Under the pieces are notes generated by a model that was not told where the DNA came from, ran no database searches, and worked only from the letters and a program-made list of their open reading frames with translations. From an uncultured Prevotella sp. (lineage in GTDB: Bacteria > Bacteroidota > Bacteroidia > Bacteroidales > Bacteroidaceae), in NCBI GenBank assembly GCA_900316015.1, contig ONBG01000003.1, positions 54,473 to 118,472 on the forward strand: 64,000 bases of DNA, read 5' to 3'. Positions 237 through 48,130 of this stretch are shown here, in pieces. Within the stretch, counting starts at the first letter, position 1. Every line of letters begins with the position of its first letter. Position numbers and translations under genes: made by a program.

Positions 237-1529
237 TTATTGGACTTTCCACTTTGCGAACCAGCCCTCATTAAAGGTTATGCCAATATTAATTCTAAAG
301 GTATTCTCCGTAATCAAGTCTTTTGCTGACTGGTGAACCCATTGGGCACTGATATTCAATATGGAGCGATTATTAAACTGATTCATGATTGGGATACCGA
401 AACCCAAGCTGGCACTGATTTCCTTAGGACCGTCTTGGCCATTTATTTTTATATAAGGTGTAGCGTATGAGACGCCCGCACGGTAATGAATCCGACCAAA
501 GAAATTTCTTCCATAAGCAGATGGGCAAAGTTCTGCTCCAACAGTTACTTTCTGCCGGTCTTTATACAAGCCACTCTTTAAAGCGTACTGAGGGACGTTA
601 TTCACCACACTATATTGCGGGAAATCAATCTTTGCCCATTTTTGCAAGCTGTAATCAACACCAAACTTTAGTTGGTCATTGTGGTTGTACATGAAGCCTG
701 CACTATAAATATGAGGAATCTCCAGCCCATTCTTCACCGTAAAAGTGGTCGTGTCAGAAACCGATGTCTCACTATTTGTAGAAATCACCTGCAGTTCTGG
801 ATCTGAATGCAACTTATGCCCCATGGTATATGTTGCACCAACGGTAAGAGCATCTTTCTTGCTCAACTTTGCCGTATATTGAGCACCAACATTCAGGTTA
901 TAGCTTCTCACATCCACAGTATAGTACTTTGACAAGGTGTTCGCATAGGTCTCACTAAAGCTCGTTACCAAAGAACGGTTCTCTGTACCCCATAGATATC
1001 CAAAATTAGCACCAAAGGAGAATCCCTTGAAAGGCTCCCATCCTGCTCCCAAGTAAACTTGATGAAAGCCACCATCACCAGAATATGCATTTGTATAGGT
1101 TGCCTTCTTGCCTTCATCAATATAATTTGTGCTGGAATAGTTATAACCAACATTGGTGAGAGGAACTAATCCAAAACTAACGCCTACATGACGGAAGGCA
1201 CGGAATCCTGCCACTACATACTCGAAGTTTCCATTATTGGCATTCAACTTCGTACCATTTTCTGAAAAATTAGTGATCTGACCAGAAATACCTGCATCGA
1301 AAATAAAAGTCAGAGAGTCAATGGCTGAATATGAGGCAGGATTCAAATAATTCACCTGATTGTGCTCGTGAAAGCCCAATCCCAATCCATTCATACCGCG
1401 ATTAAAGCCACTTGACTGTTCGGAAAGAATGCCCAAACCATACTGGCTATAAGGAGAGTTTGTGCCGCTCTGTGCAAATCCTGTAAGAGACATGATGCCG
1501 AAGAATGCGACGCATAGTATTTTCTTCAT
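237..1529 (-). CDS. Outer-membrane beta-barrel protein, FadL/TodX-like
   Basis: Signal peptide, N-terminal SPYSQYGLG and NPASY motifs, alternating amphipathic strands, aromatic C-terminus (GWFAKWKVQ). Confidence 0.7.
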   Translation of the reverse strand: MKKILCVAFFGIMSLTGFAQSGTNSPYSQYGLGILSEQSSGFNRGMNGLGLGFHEHNQVNYLNPASYSAIDSLTFIFDAGISGQITNFSENGTKLNANNGNFEYVVAGFRAFRHVGVSFGLVPLTNVGYNYSSTNYIDEGKKATYTNAYSGDGGFHQVYLGAGWEPFKGFSFGANFGYLWGTENRSLVTSFSETYANTLSKYYTVDVRSYNLNVGAQYTAKLSKKDALTVGATYTMGHKLHSDPELQVISTNSETSVSDTTTFTVKNGLEIPHIYSAGFMYNHNDQLKFGVDYSLQKWAKIDFPQYSVVNNVPQYALKSGLYKDRQKVTVGAELCPSAYGRNFFGRIHYRAGVSYATPYIKINGQDGPKEISASLGFGIPIMNQFNNRSILNISAQWVHQSAKDLITENTFRINIGITFNEGWFAKWKVQ

Positions 1530-1619
1530 TTTGTCTGTATTTCAAATTTGCTTGCAAAATTATCGAAAATTTTCGAAATAATAGCACGATAAGTGGGAAA
1601 TATAAGTTATTTTTGCATC

Positions 1620-2846
1620 GTGAAACGTTTTAAATATAATTTAAGGTGGTGCTGGGTGTTAATTTTTATGTTATTAACAACAGCCCTAAAAGGACAGGAC
1701 CGCAACGCTCTCCCAAAAGTGAATACAGATTCAATAAAGATCAGTTTACTTACTTGCGGACCAGGTTCTGAAGTGTATTCCCTATATGGTCATACAGCCA
1801 TACGTTTTCAAGATCCACAAAGGGGGCAGGATCTTGCCATCAACTACGGAATGTTTTCTTTTCGTCAAAAATTCTTCATACTCAGATTTATCTTTGGATT
1901 GACTGATTACGAAATGGGAATTATACCCTTCCAAGATTTCCTACAGGAATACAAAGACGAGCATAGATGGGTTATTGAACAGGATCTGAATCTCACTGGA
2001 GAAGAGAAATTGAATATCGCTCGTGCCATAGACGAGAACTACATCCCAGAAAATCGGGTTTACAGATACAATTACTTTTATGACAATTGCACGACAAGAG
2101 CCAGGGACCTCTTAATCCATCACGTAAACGGAAGGGTTGATTTTCATCAAGGAACGGATGCCACAACGAGTTATCGGGAAATGACGCACCAATGGAATCG
2201 AGAACACTTATGGGCACGCTTTGGAAACGATATCCTATTAGGGGTCAAGGCTGACTCCAAGACGAGTTTTGCTCAGCAACAATTCTTACCAGACAGCCTC
2301 AGGAAGGCTTTTGCCAAGGCCACGATCACAGAAAATGGTAAGATAAAACCATTCGTGGACAGTACATTTTACCTCATACGCCCCCAGGAGATAACCAATA
2401 CAGAAGGTTTTCCTCTTTCTCCGAGAGAATGTTCGTTGATCCTATTGGCATTTACCGTGATTATTACATGTTGCGAGATTCGGAAAAAATGCCGTTTTTG
2501 GATATACGACCTTGTTCTTTTTGCCTCAGCAGGCATAGCCGGGGTCATCCTCACGGCAATGATATTCTCACAGCATCCAACTGTCAGCCTCAACTTACAA
2601 ATATTAGCATTGAACCCTTTCCCTCTTTTGCTGATCTATCCAATTTGGAAACGGCTCAAAGATGGGCAGGGCTATTGGTTCATCAACGTGTGGATACTCC
2701 TAATCTTCCTGTTCTTTGTCGGGAATCTTTTCCAGGAATATGCTGAAGGGATGAATTTTGTGGCATGTTCTTTGCTCTTACGCTGCCTGACAGCTACCCC
2801 AAAAGGCAGAAACATTTTAAAGCTCAATCGTAACAAGCATGAATAA
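1620..2846 (+). CDS. lnb: DUF4105-domain membrane protein, lipoprotein N-acyltransferase Lnb-like
   Basis: ISLLTCGPG..YGHTAIR and YNYFYDNCTTR (His/Cys) motifs followed by several C-terminal TM helices. Start uncertain: ORF is open from 1593, with GTG at 1620 and ATG at 1668. Confidence 0.7.
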   Translation: MKRFKYNLRWCWVLIFMLLTTALKGQDRNALPKVNTDSIKISLLTCGPGSEVYSLYGHTAIRFQDPQRGQDLAINYGMFSFRQKFFILRFIFGLTDYEMGIIPFQDFLQEYKDEHRWVIEQDLNLTGEEKLNIARAIDENYIPENRVYRYNYFYDNCTTRARDLLIHHVNGRVDFHQGTDATTSYREMTHQWNREHLWARFGNDILLGVKADSKTSFAQQQFLPDSLRKAFAKATITENGKIKPFVDSTFYLIRPQEITNTEGFPLSPRECSLILLAFTVIITCCEIRKKCRFWIYDLVLFASAGIAGVILTAMIFSQHPTVSLNLQILALNPFPLLLIYPIWKRLKDGQGYWFINVWILLIFLFFVGNLFQEYAEGMNFVACSLLLRCLTATPKGRNILKLNRNKHE

Positions 2847-4245
2847 ATATATCACCGCAATACTCGTTGCGCTATCCGCAAATCCGACCCATGCGCAGTT
2901 GGTACAACCTGCACCCAAGCTCGTTGTCAGCATTGCCATTGATCAATTACGGTCTGACTATATTGAGGAGTTCTCATCCCTTTATACAACAGATGGTTGG
3001 AAAAAGCTGATGCGGCAAGGAATGGTTTATGATACCGCCTCCTACCCCTTTGAGCCTGTTGATCGAGCCTCTGCCATCGCATGCATCATGACGGGAACGA
3101 CGCCATATTATAATAGTATCGTCGGTACCCAATGGATGAACAGGAACACCTTAAGGCCTGTATCATGTGTAGATGATGACAAATACACATCGTCTCCCGC
3201 ACAAATTTCTACTTCTACCCTCGCTGATGAACTCAAGATTTCGACAAAAGGCAAAGCAATGATTTATGCCGTCGCTGCCGACTGTGATGCCGCCATTCTG
3301 TCAGCAGGACACGCTGCGGACGGAGCCTTTTGGATCCAAGATAAGACAGGAAAATTATGCACTTCAACGTACTATTCCAACCATGCATCTTCTTGGATAA
3401 AGAAGCAAAGTAACGAAACGCTGCAAAGTGCTCATACAGAATCGGATAGAAATGCTTTAATCGTTAAGGCAGCCATCCGTTGCATTCAGGACCATTCCAT
3501 GGGTAAGGATGACATCACGGACATGATGTCCGTAACCCTTACTGCTCAGGAAGCAAAACCGACAAACTGGCAAACACAAACAGAAAGTGCTTATCTACAG
3601 TTGGATAATTTACTTTCCGAACTGATTACTTCTATTGAAACCTCTGTAGGCAAGCAAAATGTTCTATTTGTATTAACAAGTACAGGATTCAAAGACGAAG
3701 AGAATGTTGAATATGGCAAATATAGGATTCCTACAGGTACCTTTTACATCAACAGAACAGCCAATCTACTCAATATATATCTAGGTGCCATCTATGGACA
3801 AGGAAGATATGTAGAAACTTGTTTCCACAACCAAATTTACCTGAATAGAAAACTCATAGAACAAAAGAGAATCAGTTTCAGTGATATATTAAGTCGTTCG
3901 CAGGAGTTTCTGATCCAAAATGCAGGCGTCAGGGATGTCTTTACGACAGATCGCTTACAAACAGGAAGCAATGATATCATCAAGCTGAGAAATGGCTACA
4001 ACCCTACCACAAGCGGAGATATCATGATCGAAGTTGCTGCTGGTTGGCGTCTACTCAATGAAGACAGTCAAGAAAGCTACACTTCGCGCGCTTTTTACGT
4101 CCCCTTCCCAATTATTCTATATGGGGCAGGTATAAAAGCAAAACGCATCACGACTCCAGTTACAATCGACCGCATTGCGCCTACATTGGCGAAAGCTATA
4201 CGAATTAGGGCACCAAATGCCTGCAAGGCAGAACCTCTGCCTTAG
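2839..4245 (+). CDS. Alkaline phosphatase/nucleotide pyrophosphatase (PafA-like) superfamily protein, catalytic residues apparently degenerate
   Basis: Signal peptide; PKLVVSIAIDQLRSDY motif; C-terminal VPIILYG..IAPTLA..RAP motifs. Overlaps the lnb stop. Confidence 0.8.
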   Translation: MNKYITAILVALSANPTHAQLVQPAPKLVVSIAIDQLRSDYIEEFSSLYTTDGWKKLMRQGMVYDTASYPFEPVDRASAIACIMTGTTPYYNSIVGTQWMNRNTLRPVSCVDDDKYTSSPAQISTSTLADELKISTKGKAMIYAVAADCDAAILSAGHAADGAFWIQDKTGKLCTSTYYSNHASSWIKKQSNETLQSAHTESDRNALIVKAAIRCIQDHSMGKDDITDMMSVTLTAQEAKPTNWQTQTESAYLQLDNLLSELITSIETSVGKQNVLFVLTSTGFKDEENVEYGKYRIPTGTFYINRTANLLNIYLGAIYGQGRYVETCFHNQIYLNRKLIEQKRISFSDILSRSQEFLIQNAGVRDVFTTDRLQTGSNDIIKLRNGYNPTTSGDIMIEVAAGWRLLNEDSQESYTSRAFYVPFPIILYGAGIKAKRITTPVTIDRIAPTLAKAIRIRAPNACKAEPLP

Positions 4246-4393: not shown

Positions 4394-7300
4394 ATGAATT
4401 TCAACAAATTTCTTAAGTCATTGTTCGGTGATAAGTCTGGTCGTGATATGAAACTTATTCAGCCGTTAGTTGAGAAGGTTAAGGAAGCCTATCCTGCGAT
4501 CAAAGCATTAAGCAATGACGAACTCCGTGCCAAAACGAAAGAGATCCAAAAGTATGTTCAGGACTCTGCAAAAGAAGAAAAAGCACAAATTGACGATCTA
4601 CGCTCAAGAATAGAAGAAACTCCCATTGATGAGCGAGAAGACATCTTCAACCAAATCGATAAACTTGAAAAAGAAGTACTTGAAATTTACGAGAAGGCCT
4701 TGAATGAGGTGATGCCTGTTGCGTTTAGCATCGTCAAGGATACTGCTCGGCGTTTTGCTGAGAACGAAGAGATTATCGTTACTGCTACAGACTTCGACAG
4801 AGAATTAGCTGCCGATCCCAGCAAGGATTTTATCACAATTGATGGAGACAAGGCTATCTATCATAACGAATGGACGGCTGGTGGCAATAAGATCAAATGG
4901 GATATGGTCCATTATGATGTCCAACTATTTGGAGGTATCGCCTTACATCAAGGAAAGATCGCAGAAATGGCAACAGGTGAAGGAAAGACACTTGTTGCAA
5001 CTCTCCCGGTATTCCTAAATGCATTAACGGGCAATGGCGTTCACATGGTCACTGTGAACGACTATCTTGCAAAACGTGACTCGGAGTGGATGGGACCATT
5101 GTATGAATTCAACGGTTTGTCTGTTGATTGCATTGACAAACACAGGCCGAACTCTCCAGAACGCCGTAAAGCATACCAGGCAGATATCACTTTCGGTACG
5201 AATAATGAATTCGGATTCGATTACCTGCGTGATAACATGGCTGTTTCTCCAGATGACCTGGTACAAAGGAAGCATAATTACGCCATCGTTGATGAGGTCG
5301 ATTCTGTCTTAATCGATGATGCTCGAACACCTTTGATTATTTCAGGACCAGTGCCTAAGGGCGATGACCAGATGTTCGAAGAATATCAGCCTTTAGTAGA
5401 AAAATTGGTAGGTGTCCAGCGGCAATTGGCCACTCAATATTTAGCAGATGCGAAGGCTAAGATTTCTGAGGGCATGCAGACCAATAACCAAGAAGAACTT
5501 CAGCAAGGATTTCTTTCCTTGTACCGTTCGCATCTTGCACTTCCCAAGAACAAGCCTTTAATCAAATTTCTTTCCGAGGAAGGCATGAAAGCAGGTATGC
5601 TAAAAACGGAAGAGTATTACATGGAGAACAACAACCGGAGAATGCCAGAAGCTGTAGAACCTCTCTACTTCGTTGTTGATGAAAAACTGAATTCTTGTGA
5701 TCTAACAGATAAGGGAACAGACTGGTTAGCTCAGCAGGTAAACGATAAAGACCTGTTCGTATTGCCAGATATTACTTCGCAACTCTCCGCCTTGGAGAAT
5801 GAGAAAGAACTGTCTGATCAAGAACGTATTGACAAGAAAGATGACCTTCTGAACCACTATGGTGTACAGAGCGAACGCGTTCACACGCTTCAACAATTAC
5901 TGAAAGCATACACCATGTTTAATAAGGATGATGAATACGTTGTCATGGATGGTGAAGTGAAGATCGTGGACGAGCAAACGGGACGTATCATGGAAGGTCG
6001 CCGTTGGAGTGACGGATTGCATCAGGCTATTGAAGCCAAGGAACACGTAAAAGTAGAAGCTGCCACTCAAACATTCGCAACGATCACATTGCAGAACTAC
6101 TTCCGTATGTATCACAAGTTGGCTGGTATGACAGGTACAGCGTCTACAGAAGCTGGTGAATTCTGGGACATCTACAAATTGGATGTTGTAGAGATCCCAA
6201 CGAACAAACCTGTTATCCGTAATGATATGGATGACCGTGTCTACAAGACAGCACGAGAAAAATACGCAGCCGTCATTGATGAGATAGAGGAGATGCGTAA
6301 CAGTGGTCGTCCGTGTCTGGTGGGTACGACTTCCGTTGAGATCTCAGAATTGCTGAGCCGTATGCTGAAGCTCCGAAATATTCCGCATAACGTGCTGAAT
6401 GCGAAATTGCATCAAAAAGAAGCTATGATTGTTGCTGAAGCGGGTCGTAGCACAATGGGGACCATCACGGTTACTGATGAAAACGGTAACAAACACCAAG
6501 AACAGCGTATGCTTGGTGCCGTAACGATCGCTACCAACATGGCTGGTCGAGGAACTGATATCAAATTAACGCCAGAAGTAAAAGCTGCTGGTGGTCTTGC
6601 TATCATTGGCACTGAGCGTCATGAAAGCCGCCGTGTAGACCGTCAGCTTCGTGGTCGTGCAGGGCGTCAGGGTGATCCCGGATCTTCAGTCTTCTACGTT
6701 TCCCTTGAAGATAAGCTGATGCGCCTATTTGCTTCAGAACGTATTGCAAGTGTCATGGACAGACTCGGTTTCAAAGATGGAGAACGTATCGAGAGCCCAA
6801 TGATATCGAGGAGTATTGAACGTGCCCAGAAGAAAGTGGAAGAGAATAACTTCGGTATCCGTAAGCATTTGCTGGAATACGATGACGTCATGAATAAACA
6901 ACGTACGGTGATATACGAGAAACGGCGCCATGCTTTGATGGGTGAGCGAATCGGCATGGATATTACCAATATTATTTGGGACCGCATCGTAAATATCATT
7001 GAAAAGAATGACTATGAAGGAATTAAGGAGCAATTCCTCAAGGTTCTTGCCATGGAATGCCCCTTCACAGAACAGGAGTCGATTGACGGCAATAAAAGTG
7101 AACTTGAAGAGCGCAGTTTCCAAGACGCAATGGCAAGCTTTAAGCGTAAGACAGACCGTATCCAAAGCATCGCATGGCCCATCATCAAGCAAGTACAGGA
7201 AAATGAAGGGGATAGGTTCGAACGGATTGTTGTTCCCATCACAGACGGGAAACGCATGTACAACATCCCTTGTAAGCTCAAGGAGGCATATGACTCGGAA

Positions 7301-7777
7301 TGTAAATCTGTCGTAAAACAGTTTGAAAAAGTAATTCTCCTTCACATCATTGACGATGATTGGAAAGAGAATCTCCGTCAATTGGATGAACTCCGACACA
7401 GTGTTCAGAATGCTTCTTACGAGCAAAAGGATCCTTTACTGGTATACAAGCTCGAAAGTGCTAAGATCTGGGATACGATGATTGATGATATGAACAACCG
7501 TATTGCAAGTATCCTTATGAGAGGTCAGATTCCTGAAATGCAGCAGCAAGAAGTACAGGAAGCCGCTCCAGAAGAGCATAGCCAGCGCTATAATGAGCAA
7601 AAAGCCGACTTGAGTGATCCCAATCAACAAGCTGCAGCCCATCGCGACACACGTGAGAGCGCACAGCAAGTCAGCCATGTTCCATACAGAGCAGAGAAGA
7701 TGCCACGTCCAAACGATCCTTGCCCATGCGGAAGCGGCAAGAAATTCAAGAATTGCCACGGACGGAACATTCGATAA
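4394..7777 (+). CDS. secA: Preprotein translocase ATPase SecA
   Basis: [54 protein letters not shown] motifs; C-terminal SEC-C motif [17 protein letters not shown]. Confidence 0.99.
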
Positions 7778-7784
7778 ATCCAAG

Positions 7785-8501
7785 ATGAAAATAATCATTC
7801 ATAACTTAAAAAAGAATTTCGGGGAGAAAACAGCTGTTCATATCCCCGAATTCTTTATCAACTCAGGTGATATCTTAGGACTTGTAGGTAACAACGGAGC
7901 CGGAAAAACAACACTATTCCGGCTGATGTTGGATCTCCTAAAGGCTGATGAGGGCAATGTAATCTTCCAAAAAAATGATGAAGCGGAAATTGATCCTGCT
8001 ACCAGTGAAGAATGGAAGTCATCTACCGGAGCTTATATCGATGAAGGATTTCTTATCGATTTCTTAACGCCAGAAGAATACTTCGAATTCATTGGGAAAG
8101 TCAATAATCTGTCTTTGGATGATGTTCACTTGTGGCTCCAAGGCTATGAACGATTCATGGCTGATGAAATCTTAGGGCAGAAGAAACTCATCCGTGATTT
8201 CTCTGCAGGGAACAAGCAAAAGATCGGCATCCTGTCAGCGATGCTAAACCAACCAGAACTGCTGATTTTAGATGAGCCTTTCAATTTCCTTGATCCCTCA
8301 AGTCAGAACATATTGAAAAATATGCTTGTAGAATACAATCAGTCAACTGGTGCCACGATTCTAATCAGTAGCCATAACCTACAACATACGGTGGATATCA
8401 GTACACGTATAGCATTATTGGAACATGGAGAAATCATCAAAGACCTGTCTAACCATGCTGGTAGTGCGGAACAAGAACTGAATTATTATTTTAACGTATA
8501 G
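7785..8501 (+). CDS. ABC transporter ATP-binding protein
   Basis: Walker A GNNGAGKTT, signature-like FSAGNKQK, Walker B LLILDEP, H-loop SSH. The ATG at 7785 is preferred over the ORF-track start that overlaps secA. Confidence 0.92.
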   Translation: MKIIIHNLKKNFGEKTAVHIPEFFINSGDILGLVGNNGAGKTTLFRLMLDLLKADEGNVIFQKNDEAEIDPATSEEWKSSTGAYIDEGFLIDFLTPEEYFEFIGKVNNLSLDDVHLWLQGYERFMADEILGQKKLIRDFSAGNKQKIGILSAMLNQPELLILDEPFNFLDPSSQNILKNMLVEYNQSTGATILISSHNLQHTVDISTRIALLEHGEIIKDLSNHAGSAEQELNYYFNV

Positions 8502-8518
8502 TCCAGAAGAAGGAGAAT

Positions 8519-8562
8519 AAAAAAAGTAGAAAGTAGCCCTCGTGCTTACTTTCTACTTTTTT
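8519..8562. terminator. Bidirectional intrinsic terminator between convergent genes
   Basis: Inverted repeat aaaaaaagtagaaagta...tactttctactttttt with flanking A and T runs. Confidence 0.75.
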
Positions 8563-8563
8563 C

Positions 8564-8980
8564 TTAAACTGGATTATCTTCTGGATCATTGGTGAAAAGA
8601 TCGTCAGCCCCCTTCATTTCATCGTCATCGAACCACAGATGCATCTTTGCCTTTGCCTTTTCTTTCACTTCATCAGAAACTTTTCCCCATACTTTATGAA
8701 GGACATAAATAAGGACTGCGATATCATCACTTAGACCAGCGATAGGAATTGCATCTGGGACAACATCCAGGGGACTAATTAAATATCCTAATGCCCCGAT
8801 GATAATGGCTTTCTCCTTAATAGATACTTTATCACTCTCTAAGGTATAAAATAAGATTAAAGCTGCGTATACCATTTTGGATCCTGCCCTTTTGGCAATA
8901 CGAGAAATTTTATCGACAAATCCCTTAGGAGAGTATTTGTCTTTGTATTTCATAAAATCGGGTAATTGAGGTGTTTCCAT
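8564..8980 (-). CDS. YkvA/DUF1232 family small membrane protein
   Basis: GALGYLISPLDVVPDAIPIAGLSDD motif. Confidence 0.9.
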   Translation of the reverse strand: METPQLPDFMKYKDKYSPKGFVDKISRIAKRAGSKMVYAALILFYTLESDKVSIKEKAIIIGALGYLISPLDVVPDAIPIAGLSDDIAVLIYVLHKVWGKVSDEVKEKAKAKMHLWFDDDEMKGADDLFTNDPEDNPV

Positions 8981-8989
8981 TTCTATTTA

Positions 8990-9400
8990 TTAAAAATCAA
9001 GTACATCTTTGATAAATTTCTCAAATCGATCTTCCGACATTCTCTTGAGGCGCAATTGAATGGAGAGTTTCATTGATGCTTTATAAAGGAATCCAAGCAA
9101 TATTCCGATTGCTATGGAGATAAGTAACCCACCTTCAAGTCCACCAGGTAGCTTTTCGGGGGGAAACGCGGAACAAACCAATACAGGAATAACAACTAAG
9201 ATGCCAAAAACGGTATATTGGCTTTTCTCCGAACCTTCACTATCAAGAATAGCCTGCTTATCAAAAAGATAATCATCAAGTTCACGCCGTGTAAAGCCAT
9301 AATCTTCGACGACAGGGAATCCCTTCACCCCAACATTGACCTTCATCTTTGAGGTGATTGTATGCTCATAATCAAGTATTTCCTTTTCAATATCTTTCAT
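8990..9400 (-). CDS. Hypothetical two-TM membrane protein
   Basis: 136-aa ORF with two hydrophobic segments, in an operon-like arrangement with ykvA. Confidence 0.75.
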   Translation of the reverse strand: MKDIEKEILDYEHTITSKMKVNVGVKGFPVVEDYGFTRRELDDYLFDKQAILDSEGSEKSQYTVFGILVVIPVLVCSAFPPEKLPGGLEGGLLISIAIGILLGFLYKASMKLSIQLRLKRMSEDRFEKFIKDVLDF

Positions 9401-9530
9401 GCCCTATATAACGTTACAAATCATCAATTATTATTTATTGGCGAACAAAAATTGATTCTATTTCACATCCTTGCGCACCACTAATGGATCAGACATGCTT
9501 TCATCATCTACCGTCATTTCTGAAGAAAAA

Positions 9531-9960
9531 TGAAAACAGTGCTCCTATAAGCCGGGTTCCGTCCCTCAATCACCTTTCGATGGATGAAGTGCCTGCCATT
9601 TATCTACGCCGTGAGTCACCCCACGGCTCAAGCATTCTACCCTCCGTCGTACTTGCGTATCGGACGAGCAGCCCTCAAACGACGGTATACGCGAACTTGC
9701 AGCCTCCAGTCAGCACAGCCTGGCGATCACCCGCCAGCTGGTAGTCTCTTACACTACCTTCTCACCCTTACCCTTGTGAGGATCCCAAGACCGGATCAAG
9801 TCCGACCGAGGAATGCGGAACCACAAAGGCGGTTCTTTTCTTCTGCCTTCACCTATTGTTACCAACAGCTTCTACTTTCGGAAGTGGAGTGCTCTATGCT
9901 GCCCGGACTTTCCTCTTGCACCACAAAGATGCCAGCGGCAGAGCCAGAACACTGTTTTCA
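9531..9960 (-). ncRNA. rnpB: RNase P RNA (bacterial class A)
   Basis: Minus strand carries the conserved GAGGAAAGTCCGGG near the 5' end and GGAACCCGGCTTATA near the 3' end. The termini pair (tgaaaacagtgttc / gagcactgttttca) as helix P1. Confidence 0.95.
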
Positions 9961-10144
9961 ACTGCAAAGTTAAACAAAATCATCAAATATAGCACAGAAT
10001 TCCACAAAAAATCACAAATATCAAGCGATCTTATGGTATCAAGCCTTTCAGCCCTTATACACACCTTGCGTGATCGTGCCAAACAGCCACTTGAATTACT
10101 ATTTTATGAATTTGTATCTTTGCACTGGAGTTTTTTTATGCAAT

Positions 10145-10345
10145 AGGTTGACAGGTTGTCAAAACCCAGTGTTTATCAGGCTTGCAACCTGATTTGAGGT
10201 TGTCAAAGGTTGACAAGAGGTTGACAAGAAAACACATATTATGCGCAATTTTCTCGAGAATTTATGGTAATACCTATGCTATTGTTGTGCAGAACCTTCC
10301 CTATTAGATCAAATTCTCTCGAGAATTTTGTATGATAGCTTTACA
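10145..10345. repeat. ~200-bp dispersed palindrome-rich intergenic element, copy 1
   Basis: Aligns by eye with the reverse complement of 38375-38580; contains GGTTGAC/GGTTGTC repeats and two TTCTCGAGAA palindromes. Confidence 0.85.
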
Positions 10346-10650
10346 TTTCATCTCCAGGTCATGATATGAATTGAAATGGGAGAAATAGAATCGAAGTATT
10401 GTATCCTTCCAGATGATCAAATAAACGGAAGATACCAAGAATCTAAACAAACTTAAAAACAAAAACTGTTCTACTTAAGAGCCGTTAATGTGTTAAATTC
10501 AAGTGTTAAAATGGGATAATAATATAAGACAATATGACAGATTAACAATTTTTGCGTCTATATTTGCACATGTCCATTTAAACGAATTGACGAGGGATTC
10601 GTCAAAGAGACAAATGTTGAATCAAAGAACAATTAAATATTTATAGAACA

Positions 10651-12129
10651 ATGAAAAAGTATTCTCAGTATCTGCTTGCAGGTTTGTGCGTTGTTTCGAT
10701 AGCATTTTCTGCAGGTGCTTTTATGAAAGTTCAAGCTGCTACAGAAGCTGCACCCGTTGTCACACAACCCGTTGACTTAACGTACGCAGCAGAGAAAGCT
10801 GTACCAGCTGTTGTACATATCAAATATGTACGGAATTCAAAAACTCAAACTGTGGATGTCCAGGGCGATGACTTCTTTACTGATCCATTCAGTTTCTTCT
10901 TTGGTAATCCTAATTCTGGGAATGGTGGCACACAGAAGAGAAGGATACAAACTCCTAAGCAAGAGGCGACGGGATCCGGTGTCATTATCTCCTCCGACGG
11001 CTACATTGTAACGAACAACCATGTTGTGGACGGTGCTGACGAATTGACAGTCACCCTGAATGACAATCGGGAATTCTCTGCCCGTATCATTGGTACAGAT
11101 AAGGCCACAGACCTCGCCCTGATCAAGGTTAATGCCAATAACCTCCCAACCCTCCCTATCGGAGATTCTGATAAATTGAAGATCGGAGAATGGGTCATCG
11201 CTGTAGGTAATCCATTCAACTTAAATTCTACCGTTACGGCAGGAATCGTCAGTGCCAAAGCACGTGGACTTGGGGGCGGTAGCGAGAATGGACCAGACAT
11301 TTCAAGTTTTATCCAGACTGATGCTGCCATCAACCCTGGCAATTCCGGGGGCGCATTAGTGAACACAAGAGGAGAATTAGTGGGTATCAATGCCATGCTC
11401 TACTCTCAAACAGGTTCTTTCAGCGGATATGGTTTTGCCATTCCTACCTCTATCATGAATAAGGTCGTATCCGACCTGAAGCAGTATGGTACAGTGCAAC
11501 GTGCATATCTAGGTATACGAGGAATGGACGTGCACAATTATATTGACTTACAAAAAGAACAAGACAAGACTGTTCCTGATTTCGGCACAAACGAGGGAGT
11601 CTATGTTGACCAGGTAACAGATAATGGTGCAGCAAAGGCTGCCGGCGTACAAAAGGGCGATGTCATTGTTGGTGTTGACGGCAAGACCATCAACAAGATG
11701 TCTGAACTACAACAGTACATGAACAGCAAGAAACCGGGTGATAAGCTGACCGTTACTTATCTTCGTCATAAGGATAAGATCAGCAAGACCGTTACCTTAA
11801 AGAATGCGCAGGGTAATACCAAGATTATCAAGACAGCCGACCTTGATGTTCTTGATGGAACTTTCCGCCCTGTCACTTCTGAAACCAAGAAGAGCTTAGG
11901 TATCAGCTATGGACTTGAAGTCATGAAAGTTGGCAATGGTCCATTAAAGAATGCAGGTATTAGCAAGGGCTTTATCATTCAGGAAATCAACGATATGCCT
12001 ATGAAGAGCGTCAACGACCTGCAGGATGCCGTTAAGAGCGCATCTACATCCAAGGACCAGGTACTCTACTTCAAGGGAATGTGGCCCACAGGAAAGAAAG
12101 GCTACGGAGCCATCCAACTTGACAATTAA
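10651..12129 (+). CDS. degP: HtrA/DegP (Do family) periplasmic serine protease with PDZ domains
   Basis: GSGVIIS..TNNHVV, DLAL, QTDAAINPGNSGG catalytic motifs; two PDZ domains. Confidence 0.97.
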   Translation: MKKYSQYLLAGLCVVSIAFSAGAFMKVQAATEAAPVVTQPVDLTYAAEKAVPAVVHIKYVRNSKTQTVDVQGDDFFTDPFSFFFGNPNSGNGGTQKRRIQTPKQEATGSGVIISSDGYIVTNNHVVDGADELTVTLNDNREFSARIIGTDKATDLALIKVNANNLPTLPIGDSDKLKIGEWVIAVGNPFNLNSTVTAGIVSAKARGLGGGSENGPDISSFIQTDAAINPGNSGGALVNTRGELVGINAMLYSQTGSFSGYGFAIPTSIMNKVVSDLKQYGTVQRAYLGIRGMDVHNYIDLQKEQDKTVPDFGTNEGVYVDQVTDNGAAKAAGVQKGDVIVGVDGKTINKMSELQQYMNSKKPGDKLTVTYLRHKDKISKTVTLKNAQGNTKIIKTADLDVLDGTFRPVTSETKKSLGISYGLEVMKVGNGPLKNAGISKGFIIQEINDMPMKSVNDLQDAVKSASTSKDQVLYFKGMWPTGKKGYGAIQLDN

Positions 12130-12178
12130 TAGGACATAGAGACAAGAAGGAAACTCCCTCTTTTAGCAAAACAAGAAC

Positions 12179-12241
12179 AAACCTCGAAGCAACCGCACCC
12201 AAGCAGTAAATGAACTGACGTGTGGTAACTTCGAGGTTTTT
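12179..12241 (+). terminator. Long imperfect hairpin downstream of degP (probable terminator)
   Basis: 19-bp arms aaacctcgaagcaaccgca / tgtggtaacttcgaggttt followed by a T-run. Confidence 0.45.
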
Positions 12242-12331
12242 CGTTTGAAATAAAGCAAATTATGTGCTAAAAATTTGCAGATGTGGATATAAAACTTTAA
12301 ATTTGCATTTGGCATAAATATGTAACGCTTA

Positions 12332-13195
12332 ATGAGACAACTGAAAATCACAAAATCGATTACTAATCGAGAGAGCGCATCACTCGACAAGTACTTACAG
12401 GAAATAGGTCATGAAGAGCTTATATCCGTTGAAGAAGAAGTAGAATTGGCACAGCGCATCAAGAAAGGTGACCGCAAGGCATTGGAAAAATTGACTAAAG
12501 CCAATTTAAGATTTGTGGTTTCAGTAGCCAAACAATACCAAAACCAAGGATTAAGTCTCCCAGACCTGATCAATGAAGGCAATCTGGGACTGATCAAGGC
12601 AGCGGAGAAATTCGATGAGACAAGGGGCTTCAAATTCATCTCTTATGCTGTATGGTGGATACGCCAGAGTATCCTACAGGCCATTGCAGAGCAAAGTAGA
12701 ATCGTGCGGTTACCCCTAAACCAGGTAGGATCAGTCAACAAGATCAACCGCGTCCTCAATAAATTTGAACAAGAGAATGAACGTCGCCCCAGTGTAGATG
12801 AGATTGCAGACAAAGTAGACTTGCCTGAAGATAAGGTCGTTGACGCACTCAAGGTTAATGGACATCATGTTTCCGTAGATGCACCCTTTGTCGACGGAGA
12901 GGACAATAGCCTCTTAGATGTCATGGCTAACACGGATTCTCCTATGGCAGATAAGGAATTGGTGATGGAATCATTGCGTGATGAAATTTCGAGGGCTCTC
13001 TCCACATTGAATGAGCGTGAACGCAATATCATAGAAGCATTCTTCGGGATCAACCAGCCTGAAATGACATTGGAAGAAATCGGGGATAAATATGGGCTCA
13101 CTCGTGAGCGTGTACGCCAAATAAAAGAAAAGGCGATTCGCCGTCTGCGGCATAACACCAAGAACAAGATGTTAAAGTCATATCTTGGACAATAA
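12332..13195 (+). CDS. rpoD: RNA polymerase sigma factor, RpoD/SigA family (short Bacteroidota type)
   Basis: [65 protein letters not shown]. Confidence 0.97.
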
Positions 13196-13204
13196 TAAAG
13201 AATT

Positions 13205-13744
13205 ATGAATTTCAAGAAATATATCACAATGTTTGCAGTAACCTTGGCTTTGATAACTGCCACTACAGCATCAGCCAAGAGTAGACCAGCCAAAATCTAT
13301 GCATTTGGCTTCGCTGCATCTTTCAACGATTCCACTGTGTATTTTACGGATATCCAGGAGATTGACTCGGCGTATATAACTACAAAGAATAACTTTCTCG
13401 TCAGTAGGGAAAATTATTCTTACCAGTTACGGGATTATCTTTCAGGGATTGGAGAACAACACCGGACTTGTACAATCACTTATGCCCTTGACCGAAAGAA
13501 GATTGAAAAGAAGTATTTCTCCATGCGGAAGAAATACATATCTAAGGGAACCTTCAACGTGAAGTACCTAAATGCTCCCGATTTCCATTTTAAACCGGTT
13601 ACGGATGTCAATACAGAAGACGAAACGCTGACACCTGTCAAGAAGGTTAAGGATAAAAAAGGAAAGAGGAAACGTGGAGAGATGACTCCACAAGATGGAC
13701 ATGGAAATACACCAGAAGGAAGTGGTCGTCCACCACAAAAATAA
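13205..13744 (+). CDS. Hypothetical secreted protein with Lys/Pro/Gly-rich C-terminal tail
   Basis: Cleavable signal peptide (..ATTASA|K); 179-aa ORF tightly coupled to rpoD and to the downstream kinase-like gene. Confidence 0.75.
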   Translation: MNFKKYITMFAVTLALITATTASAKSRPAKIYAFGFAASFNDSTVYFTDIQEIDSAYITTKNNFLVSRENYSYQLRDYLSGIGEQHRTCTITYALDRKKIEKKYFSMRKKYISKGTFNVKYLNAPDFHFKPVTDVNTEDETLTPVKKVKDKKGKRKRGEMTPQDGHGNTPEGSGRPPQK

Positions 13745-13749
13745 GGGCT

Positions 13750-14637
13750 ATGGAAGAAATTCACTGGTTTAGAATAGCAGAGCACAACGTGAGCATTCTT
13801 TTTAAAGATAACAGTAAAAATAACATGTCGCTGTTACCTTCTTTCGAACCGTTCAGAGCAAATCCTATCTCTGGCGGTTTGTTTTTTTCGCTCACAGTTG
13901 ATGATCAATTGCGTCCCATCCCTAAATCACGAAGAGAGAGAATCCGTGACTTTGACACGGGGAATGGGAATACGATAGTTGACTTACTTGATGATGGCGG
14001 ATATCAATTCATCATTAAGAACATCTCTGGAGGAGACTGTTGCCTACTCATTGCCAACAAAGACTTTACATCATGCACCTGTGCCCTCAACGGCAATGAA
14101 CCCATGCGCAGATTCGGGTTGAATAATGCCCTGATGATGATCTATGCCTTTGCAGGCAGTAAGCAGGACACCTTATTGATCCATGCGTCTGTCGTTAGGT
14201 ACAAAGACAAGGGGTATGCCTTCATCGCAAAAAGTGGTACTGGGAAAAGTACGCAGTCCAGTATGTGGCTAAGGTATATCCCAGGATGCGACCTGATGAA
14301 TGACGACAATCCCATTATCAGGGTATTACGTGGGAAAGCATATATCTACGGAAGTCCATGGAGTGGGAAGACACCCTGCTATCGCAATACGAAATCTGAG
14401 TTGGGAGCAATTGTCAGGATTGACCGTGCCCATGAGAATAGTATAGAGAAACTACAGCCCGTACAGTCCTTTGCCTCCTTCCTACCCTCTTGCTCCTCAA
14501 TGAAATGGGATGAGGACATCTTTGAAAATATCTGCGACATCATCACAAAGGTCGTAGAAACAAATCATTTTTATATTCTTCATTGCTTGCCAAACCGGGA
14601 AGCAGCAGAACTATGTCAGAAAACAGTCGCACCATAA
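13750..14637 (+). CDS. HPr-kinase/PEP-carboxykinase-like P-loop protein (HprK-related kinase)
   Basis: LLIHASVV, Walker A AKSGTGKST, acidic LMNDD motif and GSPWSGK, in the order typical of the HprK/PEPCK fold. Confidence 0.75.
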   Translation: MEEIHWFRIAEHNVSILFKDNSKNNMSLLPSFEPFRANPISGGLFFSLTVDDQLRPIPKSRRERIRDFDTGNGNTIVDLLDDGGYQFIIKNISGGDCCLLIANKDFTSCTCALNGNEPMRRFGLNNALMMIYAFAGSKQDTLLIHASVVRYKDKGYAFIAKSGTGKSTQSSMWLRYIPGCDLMNDDNPIIRVLRGKAYIYGSPWSGKTPCYRNTKSELGAIVRIDRAHENSIEKLQPVQSFASFLPSCSSMKWDEDIFENICDIITKVVETNHFYILHCLPNREAAELCQKTVAP

Positions 14638-36366: not shown

Positions 36367-37581
36367 TCACCTGAGGAATTTTGATGTTTCAAGCCTCGAT
36401 TCATCTGCAACGCTGGCCTTCCTGTGAATCCACACAGCCGTGGATAGCAGGAAAACATAGAGGAGAATGAGCTGGGGCAAGGTGAGGTGGATCCCCTCGA
36501 TGCTGGCATGGGGGAGCCCTGCCACGCCCGACACCGTCGCGTTCATCCAGTCGCTCACGCCCTGGAGGGCTTTTGCCACCCATAGCTGGAGCATTGGGCA
36601 GGGTGCCGTCAGGAAGAGCAGCAAGGACAAGTAGATGATCAGTGTCGCCACAGGGACGATGACCATGTTCGCCAACAAGAAATAGCATGAGAAACGGTGG
36701 AAGTAATACATCACGATGGGGATCATCCCTACCTGGGCAGCAACGGTCACGGATACCATGCCCCACAGCCATTGGAGAAGGGGATGGCAAGGATGGAGCA
36801 GCTGATGCAAGGGCTGATAGAAGAGCAGGATGGAAAGGACGGCGAGGAAGGACATCTGGAACCCGGCATCCCTGAGACTCAATGGATCGACCGTCAGCAT
36901 GACCAGTGCCGCAAAGGACAAGGTGTTGATGGACAGGGATTTCCTATGCCCCAAGGAAGCCAAGGAACAGACCGATACCATCGTGGCTGCCCGCACGATG
37001 GAAGGTGCCATCCCCACGATCAGGACATACGACCAGATGGTACTGAGCAAGACGAGCTGCGTGACCAACGGGTATCTGCGATGAGGGAACACGAGCAGCA
37101 GGATGCCGTACAAGATGGACAAGTGCAACCCCGACAGGGCGAGCACATGGGCGGCAGAGCTGACGGAATAGTCTTGCCTCACTTCTCTTGAAAGCTGCGA
37201 CTTGTCGCCTAAAGTCATGGCAGAGACTACCGCTAACGGATCGCCTTGCAATCCCAACCGCTGGTATTCCCCCAACATCCGGTCGCGCCATTCCTGAGCG
37301 GTCCGGTAAAGGGCATCGTCCTGTGACCTTGGGGCTGGTGGCAATGAAGTCCTTAAGCCACCAAACAAAAAGACGGCGATAAGGAGAAGGAAGGACGAAA
37401 GCAATGGCTTTCTCTTGATGACCATCAACACGACAAGGACTGCGCCTTCCAAGCACAGCCAGAGGGGAAAGGAAAGGGAAATGACAGGACTCAGGATAAT
37501 CCCAAGAACCCATGCCAAAGCGATCGGGAGTAAAGGAGCTGAGTCCATCCAATTTGTTCTGAACATATAGTGGCAATACAT
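36367..37581 (-). CDS. comEC: ComEC/Rec2 family competence membrane protein (intact copy)
   Basis: AMTLGDK, AHVLALSGLH, PSIVRA, GFQMSFLAV and QVGMIP motifs of the Competence domain. Confidence 0.9.
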   Translation of the reverse strand: MYCHYMFRTNWMDSAPLLPIALAWVLGIILSPVISLSFPLWLCLEGAVLVVLMVIKRKPLLSSFLLLIAVFLFGGLRTSLPPAPRSQDDALYRTAQEWRDRMLGEYQRLGLQGDPLAVVSAMTLGDKSQLSREVRQDYSVSSAAHVLALSGLHLSILYGILLLVFPHRRYPLVTQLVLLSTIWSYVLIVGMAPSIVRAATMVSVCSLASLGHRKSLSINTLSFAALVMLTVDPLSLRDAGFQMSFLAVLSILLFYQPLHQLLHPCHPLLQWLWGMVSVTVAAQVGMIPIVMYYFHRFSCYFLLANMVIVPVATLIIYLSLLLFLTAPCPMLQLWVAKALQGVSDWMNATVSGVAGLPHASIEGIHLTLPQLILLYVFLLSTAVWIHRKASVADESRLETSKFLR

Positions 37582-38280: not shown

Positions 38281-38374
38281 AACTAGAGCTTCACTTCATT
38301 GATTTTCTTGTGATATTCGTTGAGTATCGGTTTCATCTATTCTTCCATTTTGCAAATATAACGATCAGTATATT

Positions 38375-38580
38375 AAAAGTGAAGCTATCGTACAAAATTC
38401 TCTCGAGAATTTGAATCAATCGTGGTTCTTTTGCACAGCAAGAGCATAAGTAGTGCAATCAATTCTCGAGAGAATTTAGCGAAACATGTGCTTTTCCTGT
38501 CAACCTTGTGTCAACCTTTGACAACCTAAAAACAGGTTGTGAGCCCTATAAACACTGGGGTTTGACAACCTGTCAACCTT
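38375..38580. repeat. ~200-bp dispersed palindrome-rich intergenic element, copy 2 (inverted)
   Basis: Reverse complement aligns with 10145-10345. Confidence 0.85.
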
Positions 38581-38679
38581 TTCATAAAAAAAATACTGTG
38601 AGCTATAAAATTGTTCAGGAAAAGAAATCTACATGGAAGGCCTTGGGACAGTGCAAAGCAGTAGCCGTGCGATTCAATA

Positions 38680-39170
38680 ATATGGAAAAGAGGTCACATC
38701 AAAATCGGATTATACTACTCCTTTTTTTCTCGTTTGTACTTTCTCTCGTTTTGTACTATCTTTGCAAAAAAACGAACGCCAAAGACCGTCAGTATCAATA
38801 CGGCTACCGATCGCGAGAAAATCAAAAGCAACTACGCAGACTATCTGCTGTTGTGGGACAAGGACTACCCCCGGGAGCAAGACCCAATTGCTCTACATAC
38901 CTATACCCTAAAAGGCTAGAATACCCAGGTGTGGATGTATGTGGAGGCAGAAGGTGACAACATTCTTGTGCTGTCCAAGAGCAGTGGTTGGACAACACCT
39001 ACCCTAACCTGAAAAATGACGATAAAGGCTTTGCTGCCAAAATGGGACTTGGACCGGAGAGGATGTCGGTAGGTGGCTACCTATGGGACTTTCAGATCGA
39101 TACGCTCCATGTGGCTGGACACTGGTGCGGTACGACTACCGATTCCTTCAGATGGGTGTAATAGGAATGA
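38680..39170 (+). pseudogene. Degenerate ORF of an unidentified, probably exported protein
   Basis: Protein-like segments (..KSNYADYLLLWDKDYP..TYTLKG*NTQVWMYVEAEG..) spread over frames and broken by stops; family not recognised. Confidence 0.3.
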
Positions 39171-39243: not shown

Positions 39244-40588
39244 TCATGTCTCGTTGACCTTGATCAAGGCGTTGGCAATCATTGCGATTATCCCGCCAGT
39301 CGAGATCCTCGATGAGAAAAGGGAATGGATGAGCTGCGGCATTTTGTCAAGAACGCCAGGGACAAGTTCCACACTCATGCCCATGGCAAAACTGATGGCC
39401 ATTACCAGCACCGCCTTTCGGTTGATGTCCGTGGCTGCTATGATCCGGATGCCCGATGCCGCCACGGTTCCGAACATCAGAAGTGTAGCACCACCGAGTT
39501 CGCAGTCGGGGATGAGGGAGAAGAACTGACCCACAACAGGAAAGAGACCTAGGAGAAATAATGTTCCAGCGATGAAATAACCCACATAGCGGCTCGCCAC
39601 TCCCGTGAGCTATAATACCGTTATTCTGTGCGAAGATAGAGTTCGGAAAGCTATTGAATACAGCCGCCAGCATGGAGTTGAAGCCATCAGCGAGTATTCC
39701 ACCCTGCGCCCGCTTCATGAATATGGGTCCCTCGACAGGCTATCCGGAGATGAGAGAGTTGGCTGTGATGTCGCCGAAAGCCTCCACTGCCGTGACCAGA
39801 TAGATGATGCCAAGAGCGATGATACTGCCCACGTCGAAATGCAGACCGTACTTGAAGGGAACCGGTATGTTGACTGTCCCGGCATCATGCAGCTGATTGA
39901 AGTCGATCATGCCCATTGCCCAGGCTACAACACAGCCGACGATCAGTCCGATGACGATAGAGCCCATCCTAAGGTATTGGTTCTGCGATCGGTTGAAGAA
40001 GATGATAGTTACCAAGATCAATACTGCCAAGGCAAGGTATCTTAGCGAGCCAAAAGAGCCATCGTCGATAGCTGCCTGCCCTCCCCCACAGCTGTTGATG
40101 CCGACCTTGATCAGGCACAGTCCAATGAGCGTCACGACAATGCCCGACACAAGTGGAGTGATGATTTTACGTGCATAGGGCAGCAAACGGCTCACGGCCA
40201 TCTCAACGACGGATGCCACCATTGTCGCGCCGAAGATGTAGCTCAGCGCGGTAGGCGCATCAATGCGTCCATTGACCATGCCGAGCATCCCAGCTCCAAT
40301 AATCGGAGTGATGAAGGAGAATGACGTGCCCTGAATGCAGAAAAGTCCGGCTCCCAATGGCCCTATGCGATGACATTGTATAAACGTAGCGACGCCAGAG
40401 ACGAACAGTGACATGGAGACAAGGAAAACCGTGGTCTGAAGATCAAACTTCAAGGCAGAGCTGATGATGAGCGGAGGCGTGATGATAGCGACAAAGATGG
40501 CAAGCAGATGCTGCAGAGCAGCAAAGAGCGTCCCACGGAGAAGCGGACGGTCATTCAGCCCGTAAATCAAGTCCGATTGCTGTTGCAT
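39244..40588 (-). pseudogene. Xanthine/uracil permease (NCS2, PbuX-like) pseudogene
   Basis: ALQHLLAIFV..TPP, QGTSF.F, NSFPNS.FAQNNG, GGATL.MFG motifs; in-frame TAG at 39740-39742 and a frameshift near 39610. Confidence 0.9.
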
Positions 40589-41494: not shown

Positions 41495-42386
41495 AGAAGG
41501 TTAGGCGAGCCACTGATGATACATTGAGCAACTCGTATCGCTGCCACAGGACCTCCTTGCAAACGAGGCACGGAAAGATTGGGATGGCCTTACACAGGCT
41601 GTCGCGCTTGCAGGGAAGAGCGACACGAGCCTTCCCCTAAATAGAGTCGGGCATCCGCGAAGGGATACAGCCAAGTATTTGCTGGGCACTCAAGGCACGT
41701 AACATTTCTTCCTATATCATGAATTTCCTTTTTCACCGCGGGTATCGCCGGGAGCGACCGCTCCAGGGAGAAGGCATCCGGCGGGTTCATGCCATGGGGT
41801 AGAACCACATTGCAGATAAGGGTTATCTCCCTGCAGTTGATCATTGGATAAGCCATGAGCAAGGTGGGTCTCTGGGGTACAAGCCCAAGTGCTGCGGTCA
41901 AGCGTTGCTGAAAGCATGACCACTTTCTCTTGCTCGTTGCCGAAGAGCAAATGCTCTGCTTGCGCTCGCGAAAATACATATTGATCGGAATATGATCATC
42001 TGCCATTGCATGATATGTGATTAATCCATAACGCCAACCGAAAGGGGAATGTATTAGATGAGCCTCAAAAGGGCGTGCGCTCCTCTCTTCCTGCCCACAA
42101 TTCATTTCCTGCTGCAAATGTACGTGATTTCCATTAATCTTCCAACGAAATTTAAAGAACACTGCATTTTAATGCGCTTTTCTGTATATGCATGCTATTA
42201 AACATAGAAAGTGCTCTGCCGCTCCCCACCATTTTCTTTTTCTATTTCACACCGCCACATTTATTGCTATCGCAACTTTCAACTGCATCCCATGGCACTC
42301 AGCTCCTATCACCAGCAAATGATAAGGACGCGCCACCCAGACGATATTTCCGCGCCTCGCTAAGTATAAATACAGGAAAATGAGGT

Positions 42387-43448: not shown

Positions 43449-43480
43449 AAATAAGACGTAGATAATTGAGATATTTCACA

Positions 43481-45265: not shown

Positions 45266-45295
45266 AATTACGATGATTTTAGATTCTCAATAAAG

Positions 45296-48121: not shown

Positions 48122-48130
48122 GGTTTCTCC

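Follow-up and report, generated by a model that had tools for sequence, protein, structure and literature searches.

The stretch analysed here, hereinafter the window, comprises 64,000 nucleotides of contig ONBG01000003.1 from an uncultured Prevotella sp. (GCA_900316015.1) and carries two look-alike non-coding elements lying inverted relative to each other, at 10145–10345 and 38375–38580, as an earlier note on this DNA had pointed out. Their arms are 85% complementary between 10131–10232 and 38492–38593, and 74% between 10229–10367 and 38356–38494, and a profile of the family to which they belong finds only these two copies within the window. Copy 1 is situated, as first described, between the divergent rnpB (9532–9955, minus strand) and a plus-strand open reading frame (ORF) of 492 amino acids (10651–12129) labelled degP in that note. 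Copy 2 had been placed among pseudogenes: the adjoining pseudogene is real, but it went unrecognized that the dead HU-HIG 5′ end found there belongs to the element. The homologous unit is also longer than the ~200 bp given at first, with the nhmmer profile spanning 10109–10384 and 38343–38617, and the unit with its end modules covering ~10096–10404 (copy 1) and ~38343–38701 (copy 2). Judged by alignment, the two are gene-less members of a dispersed family that share their whole architecture with the control region of a cassette encoding a primase-helicase and an HU-HIG protein.

An anchored comparison of all copies resolves the anatomy into modules with the fixed order D–(M4)n–M1–M2–M3–(M4)–M5, a mosaic grammar whose basic units are 8-bp direct iterons and a 16-bp palindrome pair and not the 20–40-bp imperfect palindromes of REP/BIME mosaics; no REP-like GTAG-type unit is present. 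M1 is made up of a T-run, a first pair of GGTTGWCA iterons, a CCC-loop-GGG segment, a partial iteron in inverted orientation (GCAACCT) and a further two to four iterons spaced 10–11 bp, the number of iteron units differing between copies. M2 is a pair of AATTCTC-NN-GAGAATT palindromes separated by 65 bp, start to start, in 44 of 44 non-redundant pairs, the only centres seen being TC and the complementary GA (70 versus 59). M3 is a promoter-like end, and many copies, copy 2 among them, retain in it a −7 box of the Bacteroidetes type. The features of the two window copies are as follows:

10096–10404, plus strand: copy 1, whole unit, its start uncertain by ~4 bp (10092–10096)
10115–10122, plus strand: TATCTTTG, candidate −7 promoter box of the Bacteroidetes type (TAnnTTTG) within copy 1's left arm, from a sequence match and alignment with the intact cassette L124, which carries the same box at the equivalent place
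10146–10226, plus strand: M1 iteron array of copy 1, at a depth of 60–120x the flanks in DNA runs
10146–10153, 10208–10215 and 10219–10226, plus strand: GGTTGACA iterons of copy 1 M1
10154–10161 and 10198–10205, plus strand: GGTTGTCA iterons of copy 1 M1
10184–10190: inverted partial iteron GCAACCT of copy 1
10247–10327, plus strand: M2 twin palindromes of copy 1, AATTTTC-TC-GAGAATT (10247–10262) and AATTCTC-TC-GAGAATT (10312–10327), 65 bp start to start
10328–10404, plus strand: M3 of copy 1, with a degenerate proximal −7 box and, by alignment with L124, a remnant of the first ~6 primase-helicase codons (...TTGTATC)
38343–38701, minus strand: copy 2, whole unit in the order D-M1-M2-M3 (nhmmer match 38617–38343, E = 2.6e-85; module map M3- M2- M1- D-)
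38353–38360, minus strand: TATATTTG, intact −7-type candidate promoter box at the M3 end of copy 2, directed outward toward lower coordinates
38396–38476, minus strand: M2 twin palindromes of copy 2, at 38461–38476 (element-strand centre TC) and 38396–38411 (centre GA), 65 bp apart
38498–38578, minus strand: M1 iteron array of copy 2
38571–38578, 38509–38516 and 38498–38505, minus strand: GGTTGACA iterons of copy 2 M1
38563–38570 and 38519–38526, minus strand: GGTTGTCA iterons of copy 2 M1
38598–38669, plus strand: dead HU-HIG 5′ end (module D), VSYKIVQEKKSTWKALGQCKAVAV, matching residues 1–24 of the intact L001 HU-HIG protein at 71% identity (tblastn)

All motifs first named for the two stretches are found again in both: TTGACA-ggt-TGTCAA (10148–10162), the CAACCT-loop-AGGTTG hairpin (loop GATTTG in one copy versus GTTTTT in the other), and TGTCAA-agg-TTGACA followed by one more GGTTGACA. 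However, the supposed palindromes of the first half are better read as a set of five GGTTGWCA direct repeats together with a single inverted partial one, and the palindrome spacing, first given as 63–65 bp, is exactly 65 bp start to start. One palindrome of copy 2 has the flipped centre AATTCTC-GA-GAGAATT. The word AGGTTGACA is present six times in the window, every time within the two copies, as compared to 0.64 expected occurrences (none of 100 shuffles reached six), and the 16-bp palindrome pattern yields seven matches at four sites, all within the two copies, as compared to 0.15 expected. The earlier observation of conserved motifs with drifting spacers is borne out in 28 non-redundant full copies, chosen only via an 18-mer inside the first half: conservation is 99.6% in the palindrome arms and 96.9% in the iterons outside the search word, versus 84.5% in all other columns. 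Copies consisting of M1 alone stop at the same nucleotide (GGTTGACA[G]) at at least nine unrelated loci. The 49-nt spacer between the palindromes has one orientation in all 30 non-redundant copies, which rules out an invertible promoter between them.

On its opposite strand, module D forms, together with M1's left arm, the start of a gene. This gene is intact only at L001 and its syntenic copies, coding at L001 for a 128-aa protein with an HU-HIG domain (PF18291 at 1.2e-17); 24–66 HU-HIG codons, often with stop codons, are left elsewhere. The gene upstream of M1 at L001 has a C-terminal DUF3874 domain, and the recurrent partner in the contexts of HU-HIG homologues is a ~690-aa protein combining BT4734-like_N (an AEP primase), a VapE-like ATPase, DUF5906 and DUF3874 (PF08800, PF05272, PF19263 and PF12990), in which PADLOC reports a PrimPol domain only. 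The intact cassette L124 displays the order M1-M2-M3 (698–978), a VirE-like primase-helicase ORF (980–3034), an inverted M1 (3035–3154) and the HU-HIG start codon; its M3 appears to be the promoter-like part and start codon of the primase-helicase gene. Copy 1 aligns end to end with 655–1030 of L124, from the TATCTTTG box through the sixth primase-helicase codon, and the limits of this alignment are those of the copy 1 insertion relative to L023, a locus of a sister species. The 520-bp forms with the order M1-M2-M3-M4-inverted M1 keep ~5 primase-helicase codons and, going by their sequence, are internal-deletion derivatives of the cassette.

No homologue of the primase-helicase is found in the 64-kb window, but the window's own organism has one intact master cassette. 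At this locus, L103, M1 is accompanied by a complete HU-HIG gene and by the 3′ end of the primase-helicase (VirE) gene, and the locus is recovered with 0 mismatches in four DNA runs containing the organism (X1, X2, X7 and X12), where contigs run for more than 4 kb across the gene. Depth at L103 tracks that of the window flanks, which places the master copy in the same organism:

Run X1: L103 depth 16.8, window flank 18.8, iteron block 1900–2300
Run X2: L103 depth 61.1, window flank 58.8, iteron block 5400–7100
Run X7: L103 depth 12.4, window flank 12.3, iteron block 620–970
Run X12: L103 depth 13.8, window flank 15, iteron block 1220–1430

The ratio of iteron-block to single-copy flank depth is roughly constant across these runs at 60–120x, and hence suggests on the order of 100 copies in the genome of the window organism, as an estimate from summed metagenome contig depth and not a count.

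The family is high-copy and far from limited to the two stretches of the window, so that the outcome which the earlier note had named as a refutation, namely two copies and no more, does not apply. The exact 18-mer GGTTGTCAAAGGTTGACA is found at 45 loci in species-representative genomes, of which 39 (40 matches), many at contig ends, are in a single human-gut metagenome-assembled genome (MAG), uncultured Prevotella sp. MGYG-HGUT-02168, and two further loci are in rumen Prevotella/Bacteroidales MAGs; the remaining four, in unrelated phyla, fail the family profile and are treated as chance. A metagenome collection adds 77 loci with the 18-mer, and a profile search of the fetched loci returns 183 matches. 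We place the family at roughly 40–100 gene-less copies per genome in gut and rumen Prevotella. The units range from ~280 to 610 bp and all copies are intergenic, often between convergent genes, with 15 in the same orientation as neighbouring genes and 24 in the opposite one; these neighbours show no common theme of function or orientation. Such behaviour supports the view of a dispersed, non-coding repeat family resembling MITEs (miniature inverted-repeat transposable elements) or REPs (repetitive extragenic palindromes), as had been suggested at first. A rumen metagenome contig (L071) holds an identical copy of copy 2. Plasmid and phage collections yield no match with blastn in distant mode, the one match in a scan of viral contigs is not confirmed by the family profile and is treated as chance, and the literature searched holds no description of this repeat family.

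Cassettes of other lineages separate what is fixed in this architecture from what changes. The palindrome pair is exactly 65 bp apart in all five cassettes compared (L124, L126, L129, L135 and L137), with unrelated spacers between the palindromes. All five likewise have phased short direct repeats beside their BT4734/VapE genes, but with a lineage-specific word: GGTTGWCA in L124, GGGTGYCA in L126 and L135, and CCTACA(A/C) in the divergent L129 and L137. At L135, M1-like blocks flank the primase-helicase gene in inverted orientation and keep the layout of two iterons, loop, inverted iteron and three iterons, while L129 and L137 have oppositely oriented iteron arrays on either side of M2. A further locus, L133, has an HU-HIG gene with no primase-helicase neighbour, and directly upstream of it the variant palindrome AATTTTTCTAGAAAAATT occurs twice, 65 bp apart, with no visible iterons there. 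The HU-HIG proteins of these loci share long conserved blocks, whereas the primase-helicases diverge strongly at both ends. Together with the arrangement at L133, this leads us to a proposed assignment of the palindromes to HU-HIG and of the iterons to the primase-helicase. The divergent cassette of L137 is 99.9% identical to that of L138 over 6.9 kb, and the DNA of the two differs from ~140 bp past the 3′ end of the primase-helicase gene, with an SLFN/AlbA_2 gene beyond this boundary in one genome and a RelA_SpoT gene in the other.

Copies have been gained or lost between sister species. L023, from a gut MAG of a sister Prevotella species, is collinear with 6647–14317 of the window at ~91% identity and has a 19-bp filler in its rnpB-degP spacer instead of 10096–10404, i.e., it is without copy 1. 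Conversely, L023 carries a D-M4-M1-M2-M3-M4 cluster of 600 bp at a place occupied in the window by nothing but a terminator hairpin (8527–8559). On a finer scale, the 65-bp unit between directly oriented palindromes has been precisely lost at three loci with 100%-identical flanks (L028/L077 versus L081; L003/L104 versus L083; L020 versus L063), and one orthologous locus displays an in-place flip of the centre from TC to GA.

Larger rearrangements surround copy 2. Together with its left flank (window 38343–38770 versus 55–596 of L034, a gut-MAG locus) it is inverted relative to the permease gene (39244–40588), and at L034 the M3 end abuts the permease stop codon; the alignment is consistent with either a local inversion of the copy 2 block or an independent rearrangement. 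The collinear L034 also lacks window 41890–59337, a 17.4-kb stretch that contains a polysaccharide utilization locus and, near its right edge, a second intact HU-HIG paralogue (58622–59095). From its breakpoints (L034 2618–2969 corresponding to window 41540–41889, and L034 2960–3768 to window 59338–60146), this stretch reads as a large insertion or deletion between the sister species. A 300-bp direct repeat, 91% identical and 23 kb apart (37131–37430 and 60247–60546), brackets copy 2 and the 17.4-kb insertion, with one of its copies inside an ORF for a 404-aa membrane protein (36367–37581).

Other short sequences are associated with the element. M4 is a separate insertion of ~78 bp (GTTTTCGTTAAGCC...GGCGAAAGCC), always flanked by AAC...AAC and sometimes tandem (L023, L041, L045, L083, L090 and others), which is found at two fixed AAC sites within the family as well as at unrelated sites, and whose small terminal hairpin varies (GGC-GAAA-GCC versus CGC-GTAA-GCG). 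In appearance it resembles a very small, nested MITE that targets 3 bp. As M4 targets AAC, independent insertions at the same sites are possible, and we have therefore dropped its presence at identical positions as a proof of gene-less amplification. We also rejected M4 as a hammerhead ribozyme since, by eye, its CAGAUGA...GAGAAAA departs from the CUGAUGA...CGAAA core. Further short iterated words adjoin M1, namely tandem 23-bp units with GAAAGGTCATCT in the gut MAG (L038 and L039, right of M1) and AAAGGTGACCTTTT-type repeats in rumen MAGs (L007 and L043), and these may be arrays for other binding proteins. Many elements are bordered on either side by members of a recurrent family of terminator-like hairpins (GAGGRTGYATCA...TGATRCAYCCTC followed by a T-run), inverted relative to each other (L041 1520–1560, L045 ~860–920, L016, L018 and L030; degenerate at window 38702–38745), with G-T wobbles such that a good fold forms only on the strand of the adjacent gene's transcript.

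We consider it probable that the element reproduces, without the genes, the cis-acting control region of a Prevotella cassette of a BT4734/VirE-type primase-helicase and HU-HIG, an origin missed at first, and that its non-autonomous orphan modules are bound by the cassette proteins. The GGTTGWCA iterons, with their 10–11-bp phasing and lineage-changing word, would form the array bound by the cassette initiator, for which the primase-helicase is the likeliest candidate. The invariant AATTCTC-NN-GAGAATT pair at 65 bp would be the site of a conserved dimeric protein, most likely HU-HIG, which forms homodimers (PDB 4FMR, described in PMC5499826). The orphan copies would then provide extra, selected binding or origin-like sites for both proteins. 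Least certain, and speculative, is the proposal that the orphans increased in number as non-autonomous, MITE-like derivatives for which the cassette, and not a transposase, provided the machinery in trans. In its boldest form the proposal describes a new non-autonomous mobile or replicating element, for which the trans-acting machinery would be solely an AEP primase-helicase (BT4734/VirE-DUF3874) and a sequence-specific HU-HIG dimer, with no transposase or integrase. In this scheme the iterons would serve as origins or loading sites, and the 65-bp pair would form an HU-HIG-shaped architectural core, with spread by origin-driven copying and re-insertion next to terminators via microhomology or recombination; this we advance tentatively, as a possibility that we would not yet call probable. 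Among the options raised earlier, a repeat family with motifs that look like protein-binding sites is retained, and a structured RNA finds no support.

Several points weigh against the control-region reading. A study of HU-HIG finds its genes almost without conserved linkage and argues against sequence-specific binding (PMC5499826). The pairing of motifs with proteins comes from co-occurrence, L133 is the single case that separates palindromes from iterons, and a domain comparison of the five primase-helicases singled out no specificity domain. In the master cassette L124, the array upstream of the gene is itself degenerate at its three inner iterons, no target duplication is consistent among copies (a 28-bp repeat is seen at one locus only), and the copy number of the window genome comes from summed contig depth. 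Moreover, the HU-HIG and primase-helicase remnants stop at codons that vary among copies, and such unsharp ends would also fit the independent decay of many full cassettes. Under that alternative, a once multi-copy cassette has left a graveyard of copies from which the gene bodies were deleted independently, with no present function and no movement of their own. HU-HIG remnants of 24 codons (the common form), 66 codons (L003) and near-complete length with an internal deletion (L023), as well as primase-helicase remnants of ~6, ~8 or at least 15 codons, are in line with it, as are the lineage-specific expansions and losses for which HU-HIG genes are known (PMC5499826). We nevertheless regard it as unlikely: about one intact cassette faces tens to 100 orphans, the motif columns are 97–99.6% conserved against 84.5% elsewhere, many copies have the same module breakpoints, the solo M1 copies share an end point, and orphan iterons are perfect where the upstream array of the master is degenerate. 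An ordinary MITE, moved by a DDE or other transposase encoded elsewhere and recognizing the iteron-rich arms as Tn7/Mu/Tn402-type multi-site ends, would account for a high-copy, short, non-coding and strictly intergenic repeat that is present or absent between sister species. Some forms even have ~100-bp inverted arms (M1 ... inverted M1), and one of these, a ~500-bp M1-M2-inverted-M1 element at a rumen locus (L053/L058/L115), lies within the sole 28-bp flanking direct repeat. We judge it quite improbable. Terminal inverted repeats are present only in such forms (L017, L021, L022 and L053), and both window copies and most others are single-arm. A transposase with matching ends, which the earlier note had proposed to look for, was not found in 0.9 Mb of loci, and neither was any recurrent transposase or integrase next to copies or any RAYT (IS200/IS605-like Y1 transposase); the protein clusters near copies are all syntenic duplicates of the same loci in different assemblies. 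The target duplications likewise suggested for comparison do not go beyond chance, with the longest flank matches no different from those of shuffled pairings and none seen at L021 or L022. The plasmid and phage collections hold no match, and the only gene-carrying, full-length relatives encode the primase-helicase and HU-HIG, not a transposase.

Two further alternatives were weighed. Structured small RNAs or 5′ leaders, made from the promoter-like box of the left arm and with functional hairpins, would draw on the TAnnTTTG box at 10115–10122, which is in the same place in the master cassette, on the somewhat better folding of the element strand as single-stranded DNA compared to shuffles (z = −2.2), and on low-depth contigs (8–15) with M1 of other copies in one metatranscriptome. 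Yet the only Rfam gathering-score match in the window is RNase P (9532–9955), and L041 and L124 give none even at E ≤ 1, consistent with the initial impression that no named family matches. The only variable position of the putative stem shows no covariation (AT 47 and TA 3, pairing; TT 4, AA 2 and GT 1, non-pairing), and the second stem is unpaired in 19 of 59 cases. As the W of GGTTGWCA varies without regard to pairing, direct repeats in double-stranded DNA fit better than hairpins, and this free variation led us to reject the hairpin or RNA reading of the iterons. RNA runs contain at most 5–7% of the words of the canonical copy, and the metatranscriptome contigs cover rnpB exactly (9539–9949) and stop there, with none covering copy 1; these data are weak negative evidence against an abundant RNA product. 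The contig over the downstream ORF starts at 10592, outside copy 1, and a TATATTTG box at 10559–10566 suggests that the promoter of this ORF lies ~150 bp past the element. Copies also lie in both orientations relative to their neighbours. Altogether, an RNA function is very improbable. Host operators, i.e., sites for a host transcription factor controlling neighbours such as the downstream degP-labelled ORF, would explain palindromic and repeated motifs and the position of some copies upstream of same-orientation genes. However, the non-motif sequence is 85–95% identical between copies, which indicates recent copying and not convergent operators. Many copies lie between convergent genes, the neighbours share neither function nor orientation, and the site upstream of the downstream ORF is empty in the sister species, all of which make this barely conceivable.

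Among known systems, the control-region family resembles MITEs and mosaic repeats such as Correia/NEMIS and NIME-dRS3 of Neisseria, BIME/REP of enterobacteria and the Porphyromonas gingivalis MITE (PMC4596501) in being short, non-coding, high-copy and strictly intergenic. It shares with them a fixed module grammar, a frequent location between convergent genes near terminators, palindromes with promoter-like boxes, the breaking of short-read assemblies, and shorter forms that arise by internal deletion of a longer gene-carrying unit. It differs from them in that the relative with genes codes for a primase-helicase together with an HU-like protein instead of a transposase or RAYT, in the lack of a consistent target duplication, and in that most copies are without a second inverted arm, the arms being arrays of 8-bp direct repeats.

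Iteron origins with primase-helicase initiators are found in the phage-plasmid P4 (ori/crr with the alpha protein) and in SaPI/PICI islands (ori with Pri-Rep). These origins likewise have phased 8-bp iterons in two opposed arrays around a central region, directly beside an AEP-primase/SF3-type helicase gene, and an iteron word that changes while the architecture stays. In contrast to them, the Prevotella family has no integrase, capsid-interference or other island genes alongside and exists as tens of chromosomal orphan copies; its centre is an invariant palindrome pair at 65 bp and not an AT-rich stretch. With the res sites of serine recombinases it has in common palindromic arms, a 2-bp centre restricted to TC/GA, two sites at a fixed distance, and the precise deletion in some strains of the 65-bp unit between directly oriented sites. 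However, these deletions are equally explained by slippage between 19-bp direct repeats, and the centre flip by loop inversion of a quasi-palindrome. No recombinase gene is found near copies in the 0.9 Mb of loci, and only deletion variants are seen, with no inverted spacer between oppositely oriented sites. We retain the res site as an analogy only, there being no linked recombinase.

New here are the link to HU-HIG, the palindromes' invariant 65-bp phasing in all lineages compared, the 65-bp deletions and the centre flip at strain level, the finding that sister species each have copies the other lacks, and the depth data that point to a master copy within this organism. One Bacteroides genome has as many as 22 HU-HIG paralogues, and primase-helicases of the BT4734 type occur widely among gut Bacteroidales; to our knowledge, neither family has a known DNA target or role. 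The lineage-specific 8-bp iteron and the invariant 16-bp palindrome pair at 65 bp offer the first candidate DNA sites for these two enigmatic protein families, along with a recurrent gene pairing and a natural set of ~100 sites per genome. The repeats also break Prevotella assemblies, with many copies at contig ends, and create strain-level insertions and deletions. If the orphans were indeed copied via the primase-helicase, they would represent a transposase-free route for selfish DNA to multiply, and an element driven by the primase-helicase and HU-HIG would supply the large HU-HIG and BT4734 expansions of Bacteroidales, so far unexplained, with both a function and a DNA target.

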